From: a virus
DNA length: 64,000 bases
IMG/VR virus record: IMGVR_UViG_2630968591_000003
Location: 870-64,869 of that record
Strand: one strand, 5' to 3'
Shown: one piece after another, positions 33,533 through 42,971 of the stretch
Layout: every line of letters starts with the position of its first letter
Position numbering within the stretch: the first letter of the stretch is position 1
The notes under the pieces: model-generated
Database searches by the model: none
The model's input: only the letters and a program-made list of their open reading frames with translations
Told to the model about the DNA's origin: nothing
Position numbers and translations under genes: made by a program

Positions 33533-35431
33533 ATGCCGCTTGGAAAAGGATCGTCGCAAGAGGCGATCAGCAAGAACATCGCGACCGAGCGCGAGGCGGG
33601 CAAGCCAGAAAAGCAAGCCATCGCCATCGCCTATAACGTCGCAGGCAAGAGCAAGGCCGATTCGGAGCCCATGCAAGCCGCCGGCACGCTGATTGTGGCC
33701 AACGGCGCCGTCCTGTTCCTGCGCCGCGGCGCTGGAGGTGATCACCCCGGTGAGTGGGCCTTCGCAGGAGGGAAGCAGGAGCAAGGCGAAACCGCCGAAG
33801 AAGCCGCCCGCCGCGAGACCGCCGAAGAGACCGGATACGAGCCGCACAAGCTGGTCGAGATCGCCAAGACCGACGAGGGCGGAGTCGAGTTCACGACGTT
33901 CTATCACGAGTGCCGGCCGTTCGAAGTCGCGCTGAGCGATGAAAGCACGGAATGGGCGTGGGCGCCGATTGGGTCATGGCCCGAACCGCTCCACCCTGGC
34001 TGCCGGTTCGTGCTCGAGTCGGATGCGTTCAAGTGCATCCGCAAGGCGCACATGACGGAGACGGAGGTTGCGCAGGCGATCGCCGCGGGCGATTTCACCT
34101 CGCCGCAGTTCGTGCGCAACATGTGGATGTTCGATATCCGCATCACTGGCACGGGCACATCGTTCCGGTCCAAGGATAACGAGTACGTCTATCGGCCGCC
34201 TGAGAATTACCTCAATGATGAGTTTCTGGCGCGCTGTAATGGCCTGCCGGTCATTGTTGACCATCCCGAAAAGGCGACCCTCGATTCGCAGGAGTTTAAC
34301 AACCGGATCGTCGGCACTGTTCTGTTGCCATACATCAAGGGCGATGAGGTTTGGGCCGTAGCGCGGATTTATGATGAAGCGACCGCGACATTGATGTCGC
34401 AGGAACAGCTCTCGACATCGCCCTCCGTCGTCTTTCGAAATCCAGATTTAGAGAATTCCACCGTTACTTTAGACGGTGGGCAACCCCTCTTAATTGAGGG
34501 AAAACCGATCCTGCTCGATCACATCGCTGTATGCGAGGTGGGCGTGTGGGACAAGGGCGGCCCGCCAACCGGCGTATCCACCAACCACGTTCAGGAACCT
34601 GAGATGACTGAAGAAGAGCGTAAGGCCAAGGCGGACGCCGAGGCGAAGCAAGAACTCGAAGCGCGTGCCAAGGCCGACGCTGAGGAAAAGGCTAAAGCTG
34701 ACGCCGAGCAAGAGAAGGCAAAAGCCGATTCCGAAAAGTGGGACAAGTTGATGTCTGCAGTCGATTCGATCTGCAAGCGCATGGACTCGTTCGAAGAGAA
34801 GAAGGCTGACGGCATGCCCGGCGACGAGCTCGAGCCGGTCGGCGACAAGAAGGCTGATGCCGACGAGAAGGACGCCAAGGAGAAGGAAGCCGAGGCCGCC
34901 AAGCTGAAGGCAGAAGCGAAGGAAGAAGAAGCCAAGGCCGACGCCGAAAAGTCCGCCCTGCTCGCGCGCGTTTCCGACCTCGAAAAGATGCTCGTGGCAA
35001 CCGCGCAACTCACGCCGAAGCCCCTGAGCGATTCGGACTACGCCGCGATGGCTGATGCCCAAGCCAAGGCCGACAGCGTCTATTCGGCATTCGGCAAGCA
35101 AGCCCCGCGCGCGCTGAACGGCGAAGACCTCCTGTCGTATCGCAAGCGCCTCGCTGCTGGCGTGAAGGCACACAGCGACCAGTGGAAGTCGATCGACATC
35201 AGCAAGGTCGATGCTGCCGTGTTCGAAATCGCTGAGCCGAAGATCTACGCCGACGCGTTCGAAGCCGCTGCTCATCCGTCCGCATCGCCCGAAGGCGGTC
35301 TGCGCGCGGTGACGAAGGACACCGGCACCGGCCACAAGATCACGACGTTCTACGGCCGCCCGAGCGACTGGATGGATTCGTTCCGCCCGCCGCGTCTGAA
35401 AGGCAAGATCAACGTGCAAAAGAGCCACTGA
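33533..35431 (+). CDS. Nudix hydrolase-DUF2213 prohead protease-scaffold fusion
   Basis: Intact Nudix box [23 protein letters not shown]; [22 protein letters not shown]; KAD-repeat coiled coil. Confidence 0.82.
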
Positions 35432-35494
35432 GCTCGTAGTCGCAAACCAACAGGCCGCCATCGCGCGGCCTTTCTCATTTCTGGATAGGAAAAC

Positions 35495-36394: not shown

Positions 36395-37414
36395 ATGGCT
36401 AACATCGTACCGGCACAAATTCGGGTCAGCCCGAGCTACGTCGTTCCCGAACTGCTCCTGCAATACCAGCAGGCTTCGGGCGCATTCGAAACTATCGCCA
36501 CCGGCGACCCGCTCGTTCGCCTCGGTGAAGACGACCTCGCGGTCTACATCAAGCGTCTCGACCTTCGCACGGAAGTGCAAGTCGGCCAGTTCGCGGCGAA
36601 CCAGCTTCCGAGCTGCACGATCGTCTACAACGAGATCAGCACGCCGACGTACATGATCCGCTCGCGCGCGGAATACGATCACCACGACACGGCCGCTCTG
36701 GGCCGCGTTGGCGCGTCGACCGTCGAAGCGCACCGCCTGGCGATGCGTCAGGGCACGTTCCAGCAACAGCGGAACCTGCTGCTGTACGGCGCGAACCCGC
36801 TGAACGGCGAAGGTCTGCTGAACACGAACGGCGCCACGGCACTGAACCTGCCGGCCGACATGAACGGCAACACCACCGTTTCGACGTACGACAACGGCGC
36901 GTTCGCGTTCTTCATGCTTCAGCAAATCGGCGCGATCAAGGTCCGCACGATGCAGATGGGCATGCCGGCGCGCTTCTCGGTCGTGATGCCGCAGCGCATC
37001 CTCGAATCGATCAGCTATCAGGGCATCGTGCAACTGACGCAGTTCCAGCGTGAAGGCGCAGGTTCGAAGTCGGTTCGCGGCCTGGTGGATGACGTGCTCG
37101 AGTGGAACGAGGACGAAATCACGTGGGGCGCGGATGACACGCTCGTCGGCAAGGGCGCCGGCGGCACGGACATGATCGTCATCAGCATGCCGGAAGTGAA
37201 GAAGCCGAAGGCGAACAAGATCAACACGAACGTGTTCGCCGAGCTCACGCCGGGCCTCGAGGCATGCAGCCTCCAGCTCGTCGACCGCGCTGCGCCCACG
37301 GAGATCATTGCACCGCTCCCCGCTGGTGCTGTGGACGTCGTGTCGGAACTGCGTTCGACGTCGGGCTGGGCCGCGCGTCCGGAAGCTCTCACGCTGATCA
37401 GCGCGGGCTTCTAA
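36395..37414 (+). CDS. Major capsid protein (DUF2184-like)
   Basis: 339 aa, position, LLYG...GLLN motif, very high-GC3 codon usage. Confidence 0.8.
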   Translation: MANIVPAQIRVSPSYVVPELLLQYQQASGAFETIATGDPLVRLGEDDLAVYIKRLDLRTEVQVGQFAANQLPSCTIVYNEISTPTYMIRSRAEYDHHDTAALGRVGASTVEAHRLAMRQGTFQQQRNLLLYGANPLNGEGLLNTNGATALNLPADMNGNTTVSTYDNGAFAFFMLQQIGAIKVRTMQMGMPARFSVVMPQRILESISYQGIVQLTQFQREGAGSKSVRGLVDDVLEWNEDEITWGADDTLVGKGAGGTDMIVISMPEVKKPKANKINTNVFAELTPGLEACSLQLVDRAAPTEIIAPLPAGAVDVVSELRSTSGWAARPEALTLISAGF

Positions 37415-37422
37415 TCGGTTGT

Positions 37423-37474
37423 CCCACACCTAGGCGCCGGAGCCGAAAGCCCGTTCCCTGCGGGTTGGTGTGGG
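37423..37474 (+). ncRNA. Structured three-way-junction RNA element, copy 1
   Basis: cccacacc-TA-ggc[gccgga]gcc-GAAAG-cccg[ttccctg]cggg-TT-ggtgtggg; covaries with 42248-42300. Confidence 0.65.
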
Positions 37475-37510
37475 CATTCAATACAGGGATTCTTTTCAGG
37501 GAAAGAAGCC

Positions 37511-38020
37511 ATGACGTTGTATGTAGGCAATCTCACGAAGCAGGTTTTCGAACTTCATTTCTGGGTCGAGAACACCAAGAAGCCGATCGTCGTTAAGATC
37601 CAGCCCGGCAGCCAAGCGAACGTCTATCCGCAAGGCTCCCACCTCGATCACGAAAACATCGTCGGTCAGCACAAGATGTACGGTCTGACTCAGGTATCCG
37701 AGATCGACCGCCGCAAAGAATTCGTCGGCCATTGCTATCAGTTCGACACGCCGATCCCGCTTGATCGCCTGTTCACGACGATGGAGCGCAACGACGACAT
37801 GCTGTACGACCAAGCGCTCGAGCGTCGCAAGGAAGCCGCGCTGGCTATGGACGAGACGATGAAACGAACCGCGCAAGAAACCGACACGAAACTGCAGAAC
37901 TTCGAGGTCGAGCTTCAGGAAGTCGAGCAGAAAGGCGTCGACACGCAGGTTCACGAAGTCATCACCGTGGGCGACGGCGAGCAGCAGCAACGCCGCCGCG
38001 GCCGTCCGCGCAGGAGCTAA
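37511..38020 (+). CDS. Head-tail region hypothetical protein
   Basis: 169 aa after the capsid gene. Confidence 0.75.
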   Translation: MTLYVGNLTKQVFELHFWVENTKKPIVVKIQPGSQANVYPQGSHLDHENIVGQHKMYGLTQVSEIDRRKEFVGHCYQFDTPIPLDRLFTTMERNDDMLYDQALERRKEAALAMDETMKRTAQETDTKLQNFEVELQEVEQKGVDTQVHEVITVGDGEQQQRRRGRPRRS

Positions 38021-40091: not shown

Positions 40092-40113
40092 ACCCCGCTC
40101 CGGCGGGGTTTTT
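40092..40113 (+). terminator. Intrinsic terminator
   Basis: accccgc-tccg-gcggggt-tttt. Confidence 0.6.
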
Positions 40114-41792: not shown

Positions 41793-42239
41793 ATGGCTAA
41801 TGTACCTGTGGTAGCACAAGGCGTCCTGAACCGCGTTCGATGCTCCGTGATCGTTCCGAGCAACCCGGCGCTGAACATCACGGCGCCGTTCATGGGCCGC
41901 TCATTCGCTCGCATCGAGTTCGAAGGCGATTTCGTTCAGCAGATCGAGACCGGGACGGGCGCAGTTCGCTCGCCCGAGCCGTTCGTCATGGCGACGATTT
42001 CGGTTGGCCTGTTGCGCACTCAAGCGCTCGCAAGCAATTGGATGATGCAAGCGCAGACCAATGGCTTCTTGGGCGACGTGACGATCCATAGCGATACGGC
42101 AGCTTTCCAGCCGATCACTATCAACGAGGCGGTTTTGCGCCATCTCGACCCCGGCGCTTTTGACGGCACGGACCCCATCGTGAGAGTTACGGTGCGTGGC
42201 ACGTTCCCGATCAACGCCGACATGTGGAACTTCGCTTAA
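41793..42239 (+). CDS. Tail tube protein
   Basis: 148 aa after sheath, before chaperone and tape measure. Confidence 0.72.
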   Translation: MANVPVVAQGVLNRVRCSVIVPSNPALNITAPFMGRSFARIEFEGDFVQQIETGTGAVRSPEPFVMATISVGLLRTQALASNWMMQAQTNGFLGDVTIHSDTAAFQPITINEAVLRHLDPGAFDGTDPIVRVTVRGTFPINADMWNFA

Positions 42240-42247
42240 CGCTTTGC

Positions 42248-42300
42248 GCTGCGGCTAGGAACGCGATCCGAAAGCCGGCCCCCTTACCGGTTGCCGCAGC
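42248..42300 (+). ncRNA. Structured three-way-junction RNA element, copy 2
   Basis: gctgcggc-TA-gga[acgcga]tcc-GAAAG-ccgg[ccccctta]ccgg-TT-gccgcagc. Confidence 0.65.
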
Positions 42301-42332
42301 CTCTTCTAAGGGCTGACTGAAGGGAATCAGAC

Positions 42333-42971
42333 ATGAAGATCAACGAGAAACGGCACCTTGTGTTGCCGATCGTGACCGACCTGGTCACGAAGAAGGTGGA
42401 AGGAAAGGATGTGACCGAGGAAGTGGTTCGCATCTATGCTCATCACACGCCGGTCTCGCGCGAGGTATTCGAGGCGAATTATCGAATCCTTGCCGCAACC
42501 AAATCGGCGCTGGCGAGCAAGGGTTCGCACTACCTGATGTCGTCGGGCCCGCGCATCGCGGCTCTGACGCTTCGGGATGAAGGAAAGAAGGATGCAGCGG
42601 CGCGAGGCTCGTTCGATGAGCAAGGGCGCGTCGTGGACGAAGAGACCCCCGCTTTCTTTGCTGAACTGAAGCGCCTGACGATGGTGCTTTGCCCTGGTCA
42701 GCAAGGGTGGGACATGCTGCCCATCGACGCAGCCATCGGTGCCGGCAAGATCGACGCCGAGGATTGGGAGGAGGTGGCTTCGAGTCTCGTTTTTTTTACT
42801 TGTCATTATGCGATGGCGAGAAAAGCCGATCGCGAGACGACGGCGAACGGAACAGCTTCACTTCTGGGGTCGTCGATTTCATCCTTGGCACCTACGGAAT
42901 TCATCGCCTCCTTGCCGAGCTGGACGCCGGCCGCACCTACGATGCCGGTACAGTCTTCGATTCCATCCTAA
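42333..42971 (+). CDS. Tail assembly chaperone (gpG-like); -1 frame extends to 43081
   Basis: Between tube and tape measure; T8 run at 42790-42797 and open -1 frame to 43081. Confidence 0.7.
   Translation: MKINEKRHLVLPIVTDLVTKKVEGKDVTEEVVRIYAHHTPVSREVFEANYRILAATKSALASKGSHYLMSSGPRIAALTLRDEGKKDAAARGSFDEQGRVVDEETPAFFAELKRLTMVLCPGQQGWDMLPIDAAIGAGKIDAEDWEEVASSLVFFTCHYAMARKADRETTANGTASLLGSSISSLAPTEFIASLPSWTPAAPTMPVQSSIPS

Follow-up and report, generated by a model that had tools for sequence, protein, structure and literature searches.

Genomic Location and Flanking Genes

The stretch of viral DNA analysed here, hereafter referred to as the window, spans 64,000 nucleotides (positions 870 to 64,869) and makes up most of the 66.9-kb IMG/VR provirus record IMGVR_UViG_2630968591_000003. 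Two copies of a three-way junction RNA lie on its + strand, at 37423-37474 and 42248-42300, and each of them occupies the gap between two genes of the late structural operon:

36395-37414, + strand: upstream gene of copy 1, 339 aa, probable major capsid protein (PHROG 264; PdC23 homologue)
37511-38020, + strand: downstream gene of copy 1, g169, 169 aa, ATG at 37511 (PHROG 6737; head-module position)
41793-42239, + strand: upstream gene of copy 2, 148 aa, probable tail tube (directly after a PHROG tail-sheath match)
42333-42971, + strand: downstream gene of copy 2, g212, 212 aa, ATG at 42333, probable tail assembly chaperone (position; -1 frame ORF)

The 339-aa gene has a match to PHROG 6671 and a weak one to PHROG 264, 'major head protein' (E 7e-07), and its protein has a homologue in Pantoea phage PdC23 that is annotated as the major capsid protein. 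In the second region, a tail sheath gene recognized by PHROG is followed by the 148-aa gene, the 212-aa gene, and a tape-measure-like gene of 562 aa, whose product has an SLT lytic transglycosylase domain; the labels 'tail tube' and 'tail chaperone' are used because these positions fit the sheath, tube, chaperone, and tape-measure order of contractile tails. An earlier note on this DNA had named the two upstream genes as capsid and tail tube, of which the former is borne out by PHROG 264 and by PdC23, and the latter is identified by position only. Moreover, g212 holds a run of eight T at 42790-42797, in the register U UUU UUU, together with an overlapping -1 frame ORF that stays open to 43081, shortly ahead of the 562-aa gene; the arrangement resembles the programmed -1 frameshifting of tail assembly chaperones.

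Elsewhere in the late region, a 632-aa gene (33533-35431) contains a NUDIX hydrolase domain and DUF2213, a prohead protease-like region, and its homologue in Klebsiella phage Chronis occupies the same position and is annotated as a putative NUDIX hydrolase. Convincing terminator-like hairpins with U-rich tails are found on the + strand of this region at 35452-35471 and 40092-40109 only; the former precedes a 296-aa gene and the latter follows a 314-aa gene, and neither lies at a site of the junction RNA.

Architecture of the Two Copies

Both copies follow the plan P1-UA-P2-GAAAG-P3-TT-P1':

37423-37430/37467-37474, + strand: copy 1 P1/P1', CCCACACC/GGTGTGGG
37431-32, + strand: copy 1 junction UA
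37433-35/37442-44, + strand: copy 1 P2, GGC-GCCGGA-GCC
37445-49, + strand: copy 1 junction GAAAG
37450-53/37461-64, + strand: copy 1 P3, CCCG-TTCCCTG-CGGG, with loop L3 TTCCCTG at 37454-60
37465-66, + strand: copy 1 junction TT
42248-55/42293-42300, + strand: copy 2 P1/P1', GCTGCGGC/GCCGCAGC
42256-57, + strand: copy 2 junction UA
42258-60/42267-69, + strand: copy 2 P2, GGA-ACGCGA-TCC
42270-74, + strand: copy 2 junction GAAAG
42275-78/42287-90, + strand: copy 2 P3, CCGG-CCCCCTTA-CCGG, with loop L3 CCCCCTTA at 42279-86
42291-92, + strand: copy 2 junction TT

The minimum-free-energy fold of either copy is the three-way junction, at -28.5 kcal/mol for copy 1 (z -3.56, with 0 of 200 shuffles as good) and at -25.0 kcal/mol for copy 2 (z -2.58), and the reverse strands of both copies fold less specifically than the + strand. 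The sequence pattern of copy 2 has a chance expectation of 0.00 occurrences. The GC-rich P1 helix begins 8 nt past a TAA stop codon in both cases (37412-37414 for copy 1 and 42237-42239 for copy 2). No terminator-like site was called at either element, and the U-run that would follow the GC-rich hairpin of an intrinsic (Rho-independent) terminator is missing, the tails being CAUUCAAUAC and CUCUUCUAAG. On these points the earlier note, which had described the shared architecture, the 8-nt distance from the stop codon, and the absence of a U-tract, agrees with both the sequence and the folds. The extent that it gave, 37423-37474, holds for the core of copy 1 and falls short of the full length, since the element continues about 15 nt further 3', to 37489 in copy 1 and 42312 in copy 2, and this addition holds a pseudoknot strand.

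The P2 loops of this phage lineage are 6 nt long and contain 4-nt GC palindromes (GCCGGA at 37436-37441, ACGCGA at 42261-42266, and UGCGCA), which could lengthen the stem or permit loop-loop dimers; island copies mostly carry a GACG loop.

Assignment to the int-alpA RNA Family

Both elements belong to the int-alpA RNA family, RF02996. In a scan of the whole window with the Rfam covariance models, two matches and no more exceeded the curated threshold, and each of them is to this family and on the + strand; against a gathering cut-off of 35.8 bits, copy 1 scores 46.1 bits (37423-37488) and copy 2 scores 50.4 bits (42248-42312), each over model positions 1-71 of 71, and these two are the only copies of RF02996 in the record. 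The junction of the family (C-UAG ... CGAAA ... U-G) is present in the consensus alignment, in the folds, and in the relatives, and its purine tail (A-GGG about 10 nt past P1) appears as CAGGGA at 37484-89 and TAAGGG at 42307-12. The earlier note had not assigned the motif to an Rfam family, and a view that it belongs to none is mistaken; as both copies exceed the cut-off of a known family, the motif itself is not novel. The known self-cleaving ribozyme classes (hammerhead, twister, pistol, hatchet, HDV-like, and others) gave no Rfam match at the gathering threshold over the window, and around copy 1, at E values up to 10, Rfam added to RF02996 two chance-level matches only, Glutamine-II and an lncRNA. 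A ring like that of flavivirus xrRNAs, in which the 5' flank pairs with the GAAA junction, was considered and rejected, as the U-rich 5' flanks that occur in many island copies are absent from the phage copies, so that the resemblance is one of topology only; no xrRNA match was found in Rfam.

The genomic setting is a provirus with close relatives in Paraburkholderia genomes, and neither copy lies near an integrase; other members of RF02996 in the same bacterial order are found downstream of P4-type integrases. Rfam types the family as an sRNA of unknown function that occurs near integrase and alpA genes in prophages. The motif was reportedly first described in the 2017 survey of Weinberg et al. 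It is not discussed in the main text of that survey (PMC5737381), and a literature search for the name int-alpA found no functional study of the RNA. The same search showed int-alpA RNA named among the predicted sRNAs of STEC genomes; elsewhere in the literature, the same string denotes the int-alpA-pri gene module of phage satellites and not the RNA motif.

Conservation and Covariation in Relatives

A search with the capsid protein recovered 80 viral contigs at 59-90% identity, as well as prophages in Paraburkholderia dilworthii and P. phenoliruptrix, and the gene order is kept throughout these relatives. A covariance model was built from the two copies in the window, rebuilt from its matches, and searched against the relatives, where it matched the + strand only. 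Covarying homologues were found at the same two sites in approximately 35 related Paraburkholderia-type prophages; both sites are occupied in essentially every contig with a capsid protein identity of about 64% or more, and a few more distant contigs have the element at the tube site. A search of the same bacterial order with RF02996 gave another 32 matches, with 27 of 151 genomes positive. The combined set thus comprises 85 hits, of which 83 are distinct, and all 85 are co-oriented with their flanking genes.

Across the 83 distinct sequences, double-sided changes occur in every one of the 15 base pairs, and the share of paired cells is 99.0%, as against 68.8% in shuffled sequences, a figure that leans towards the structure because the alignment was fitted to the model, which is not so for the double changes. 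When the partner is slid by one to three columns, the covariation signal collapses. The junction bases are kept nearly throughout: among the 83 sequences, UAG is retained at its three positions in 83, 82, and 82 cases, GAAA at its four positions in 80, 83, 83, and 70 cases, and the U directly before P1' in 78. The proposal of a selected RNA structure that is oriented in cis, with helices that covary around conserved junction nucleotides, was right.

Complementarity of the P3 Loop to Two Downstream Sites

A purine tract that starts 6-12 nt past P1 (site 1) forms the pseudoknot with L3, the loop of P3. To a second copy of this tract (site 2), which either is or abuts the Shine-Dalgarno sequence of the next gene, L3 is complementary in equal measure. 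In the window, the sites are as follows:

37484-37489, + strand: copy 1 site 1, CAGGGA, 10 nt past P1; pairs with L3 UCCCUG; duplex -9.9 kcal/mol
37497-37503, + strand: copy 1 site 2, CAGGGAA, Shine-Dalgarno region of g169, 7 nt before ATG 37511; fully complementary to L3 (7 bp); duplex -10.4 kcal/mol
42307-42312, + strand: copy 2 site 1, TAAGGG, 7 nt past P1; pairs with L3 CCCUUA; duplex -7.1 kcal/mol
42320-42324, + strand: copy 2 site 2, AAGGG, Shine-Dalgarno of g212, 8 nt before ATG 42333; complementary to L3 CCCUU; duplex -7.6 kcal/mol

Site 2 of copy 1 lies partly within a weak hairpin at 37490-37507, and most of site 2 in copy 2 falls within the loop of a small hairpin at about 42313-42332, the stem of which is closed by A42320 in the fold. 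Among the relatives, the loop covaries with both sites, in the following forms:

Most capsid-site copies: L3 CCCUGU; site 1 ACAGGG; site 2 ACAGGG
Most tube-site copies: L3 CCUUA; site 1 UAAGG; site 2 AAGG
L024: L3 CCUGUG; site 1 CACAGG; site 2 CACAGG
L041: L3 UCCUUG; site 1 CAAGGA; site 2 CAAGGAA
L039: L3 CUUGAAC; site 1 GUUC; site 2 UGUUCAAG
L015, L029, and L010: L3 UUUGACCG; site 1 CGGUC; site 2 GUCAA

Both pairings are retained even in the variants that do not resemble a Shine-Dalgarno sequence (L039; L015, L029, and L010; L024). The dual complementarity was evaluated with one sequence for each distinct L3 (n = 37), the loops being permuted among sequences 1000 times. The mean longest Watson-Crick run is 5.76 for L3 with site 1, compared with 4.17 +/- 0.18 after permutation, and 4.95 for L3 with site 2, compared with 3.84 +/- 0.16, and neither observed value was reached in any of the 1000 permutations (0/1000 in both cases). 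The sites being purine-rich and L3 pyrimidine-rich, part of this complementarity is compositional, and composition is only partly controlled by the permutation because the sequences are related. The mean duplex energies are nearly the same, at -8.4 kcal/mol for L3 with site 1 and -8.3 kcal/mol for L3 with site 2.

The distances to the downstream gene are narrowly set, as the start codon lies 26-38 nt past P1 in 69 of 73 cases, and the end of site 2 lies 4-9 nt before the start codon in 61 of 67. In tube-site and island copies, site 2 is located in the loop of a small hairpin, the 3' arm of which abuts the start codon, and the stems of these Shine-Dalgarno-presenting hairpins in single-sequence folds include CUCAAU/AUUGAG, CUGAUU/AAUCAG, GUCAA/UUGAC, and GCUGA/UCAGC; most capsid-site copies are without such a hairpin, so that this platform is not uniform. 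The linker between P1 and site 1 (37475-37483 and 42301-42306 in the window, and likewise in relatives) is pyrimidine-rich and often starts with YCCY (CUCUUC, ACCUC, UCCCUU); in the minimum-free-energy fold, the linker of copy 2 pairs with site 2 and may be a third competitor for the ribosome-binding site.

A further int-alpA-like element was observed in a distant Stellaceae MAG contig (L089:6177-6249), where it lies upstream of the capsid module and before a 236-aa ORF, with the loop AAUCCC and the sites UGGGA and GGGAUU. Its place outside the two usual sites shows that the leader is used at other positions in this phage group.

Association with the Downstream Gene

The spacing to the upstream stop codon is looser: of 30 capsid sites, 23 have a distance of 7-11 nt and 7 a distance of 17-55 nt, and at tube sites the range is 6-14 nt. 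A strict rule of 8 nt after the stop, with coupling to terminating ribosomes, was rejected, as the spacing is modal rather than fixed and some copies stand behind terminator-like hairpins with no stop codon nearby. In locus L005, an HNH endonuclease gene is inserted between the capsid gene and the element, and in L010, L015, and L029 an inserted GIY-YIG endonuclease gene separates the element from the tube gene; at each of these four loci, the element still stands directly before the g169 or g212 homologue, and it is preceded by a terminator-like hairpin, not by a stop codon. The homing-endonuclease genes are free-standing, occupy precisely the two gaps in which the element is found, and lie at L005:9121-9900, L010:14009-15043, L029:13967-14932, and L015:7887-8882. 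The inserted GIY-YIG gene has an int-alpA-type leader of its own, a variant with a different loop and different sites, and with this leader on the 5' side and a terminator-like hairpin on the 3' side, each such gene forms a leader-gene-terminator cassette.

The same association recurs among the family members in the wider bacterial order, in which an ORF on the same strand starts 12-23 nt past the match in 29 of 32 cases, the 3 exceptions being contig ends or truncated. Upstream of these members there is a P4-type integrase gene (8 of 10 tested) or a gene for an HTH protein, and the downstream gene is variable and mostly without a Pfam family. Taken together, the spacing, the insertions, and the other genomes point to an element that goes with the downstream gene. 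An assignment of the module to the upstream high-copy gene, as a processing site or 3' stabiliser, was accordingly the weaker part of the earlier note, given that the spacing to the stop varies, that the element stays with the downstream gene, and that L3 is complementary to the ribosome-binding site of the latter.

The two gaps are built differently in more distant relatives without the element. There, the tube and chaperone genes are 3-10 nt apart, and in Klebsiella phage vB_Kpn_Chronis and Yersinia phage vB_YenM_29.18 a plain intrinsic terminator lies in the post-capsid gap, with no element found in either genome (best score 11 bits, E 0.44, with filters off). Intermediate arrangements also occur: L041 has a terminator-like hairpin directly 3' of the element, and L039 has such hairpins both before and after it, the latter separating site 1 from site 2. 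Given the terminators of the distant relatives and the intermediates that have both features, a step-down of expression after the capsid gene is plausibly an ancestral property of this gap. The idea that the element sets subunit stoichiometry may accordingly survive as a post-capsid step-down or as downstream translational control, whereas its framing as an upstream module is weaker.

Proposed Mechanism and Alternative Explanations

The int-alpA elements are probably cis-acting translational control leaders for the genes that follow them, g169 and g212. They would act within the late polycistronic mRNA on translation initiation of the next gene, with L3 as the anti-Shine-Dalgarno strand for which a decoy, site 1, and the genuine ribosome-binding site would compete. 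As long as L3 remains paired with site 1, the ribosome-binding site would be free; when L3 pairs with site 2, as it is presumed to do in vivo, the ribosome-binding site would be masked. The split between these two states would set or switch the frequency at which the downstream gene is translated, in the direction of either a throttle or an enhancer, and the conserved junction may hold the RNA in a set geometry or recruit a factor that favours one partner over the other. In this operon, the likely net effect would be that low-copy genes are no longer coupled to the capsid and tube genes, which are translated heavily. A translational switch was among the options offered by the earlier note. The short modal distance of 7-10 nt to the upstream stop and the place after two abundant genes would fit a role for the upstream mRNA as well. 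It is possible, if doubtful, that int-alpA RNA is a genuine two-state switch in wide use among phages, satellites, and genomic islands, in which a small molecule bound at the junction, a phage or host protein, or a ribosome terminating 7-10 nt upstream would decide between the pairings. A conserved junction with two alternative pairings would be compatible with a candidate riboswitch architecture; no metabolic gene association and no ligand were found for the elements.

Several other explanations have to be weighed against translational control of the next gene. The element might instead be a 3' module of the upstream gene, a stable pseudoknotted structure that would block 3' exonucleases, serve as a processing site, or attenuate read-through, such that capsid and tube mRNA outlasts or outnumbers that of the distal genes. 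Its place 8 nt past the stops of two abundant virion genes, the GC-rich P1, folds of -25 to -28 kcal/mol, and the intrinsic terminator in the post-capsid gap of distant cultured relatives all suit such a module, and the hairpins right after the element in intermediate relatives suggest that a capsid transcript could terminate there and have the element as part of its 3' UTR. This explanation is nevertheless rather unlikely: the U-run is absent here, insertions leave the element with the downstream gene and several copies behind a terminator-like hairpin, members elsewhere follow integrase genes and not high-copy genes, and both the complementarity of L3 to the Shine-Dalgarno sequence and the fixed distance to the start codon would be left unexplained. 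At the level of DNA, a target of recombination or homing, marking the boundaries of cassettes much as folded attC sites do, is scarcely credible, even though homing-endonuclease genes are inserted next to the element in relatives and the family adjoins integrase genes elsewhere. The + strand has G-U pairs, with 14 at one P2 pair, for instance, and these would be A-C mismatches on the other strand; the orientation relative to genes is strict, and complementarity to a ribosome-binding site is sensible only for RNA.

It is also quite improbable that the RNA acts in trans, as an sRNA, or that it serves as a protein platform or sponge, for instance for a protein of the CsrA/RsmA type that recognizes GGA motifs. 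The sRNA typing of the family by Rfam and the invariant junction bases, which suggest a specific partner, are consistent with either role, and the bracketing of the element by terminator-like hairpins in L039 and L041 would suit a trans-acting RNA; however, no promoter-like site precedes either copy, and without exception the element has the orientation of the next start codon, from which it keeps a fixed distance. As for a protein platform, AUACAGGGAU, the stretch made up of site 1 in copy 1 and its 5' flank, is similar to the CsrA consensus published from SELEX, which is reportedly RUACARGGAUGU, and about 13 nt away the Shine-Dalgarno sequence holds a second GGA motif. Variants without GGA at site 1 (CGGUC, GUUCGA, GGAC) nonetheless keep their complementarity to L3, which argues for RNA-RNA pairing and against a protein site of defined sequence. 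A protein that binds the junction would be compatible with translational control of the downstream gene, as its trigger.

Int-alpA RNA has been catalogued since 2017 without a function, and the phage lineage described here amounts to a clean natural experiment, with two fixed sites, dozens of covarying relatives, insertion variants, and distant relatives without the element. If the two-site model is true, a leader that is widespread among the genes of phages, satellites, and islands would have its explanation, and the model could yield a compact and portable part for translational control; if a two-state switch is involved, the element would be a portable cassette that gates translation of any gene placed behind it, core virion genes included.

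Comparison with Known Systems

The elements share with RF02996 int-alpA RNA the three-way junction, the UAG and GAAA junction bases, the AGGG-type 3' tail, and the setting in proteobacterial prophage DNA. In contrast to the usual int-alpA RNA, they are found in a core late structural operon and not beside integrase or alpA or before accessory genes, and their P2 loops are 6-nt GC-palindromic loops in place of the GACG loop common elsewhere; the downstream second site and the alternative pairing come from the present analysis. The preQ1-II and SAM-II/SAM-V RNAs are pseudoknot riboswitches, or translational operators, that mask the Shine-Dalgarno sequence, and the present elements resemble them in having a compact domain, conserved unpaired bases, a Shine-Dalgarno-like pseudoknot strand, and a pairing that would govern access to the ribosome-binding site. 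However, the pseudoknot strand here is a decoy copy and not the Shine-Dalgarno sequence itself, and the genes concerned are those of phages, satellites, and islands rather than metabolic genes. Membership in the preQ1-II, SAM-II, or SAM-V families is unsupported, RF02996 being the sole Rfam match at threshold.

The terminators of Chronis and vB_YenM_29.18 occupy the same slot, from the capsid gene to the g169 homologue, and a step-down would be expected in both situations; these terminators are simple GC hairpins with U-runs, whereas the present element has no U-run, combines a junction with a pseudoknot, and goes with the start codon downstream. In phage T4, the I-TevI and seg genes carry hairpins that sequester the ribosome-binding site and limit translation of the homing endonucleases; these are plain hairpins, relieved by the use of alternative promoters. 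The likeness lies in a cis structure that would mask a ribosome-binding site within a phage operon, and the GIY-YIG gene of the relatives described above itself has an int-alpA-type leader; the difference is that a junction with a decoy site and two competing pairings takes the place of the T4 hairpin. What is specific to the present case is that int-alpA RNA precedes a head gene and a tail chaperone of the core structural operon rather than accessory genes, that two syntenic sites are kept across a phage lineage in which insertion variants tie the element to the downstream gene, and that a terminator or tight gene coupling replaces the element in distant relatives.
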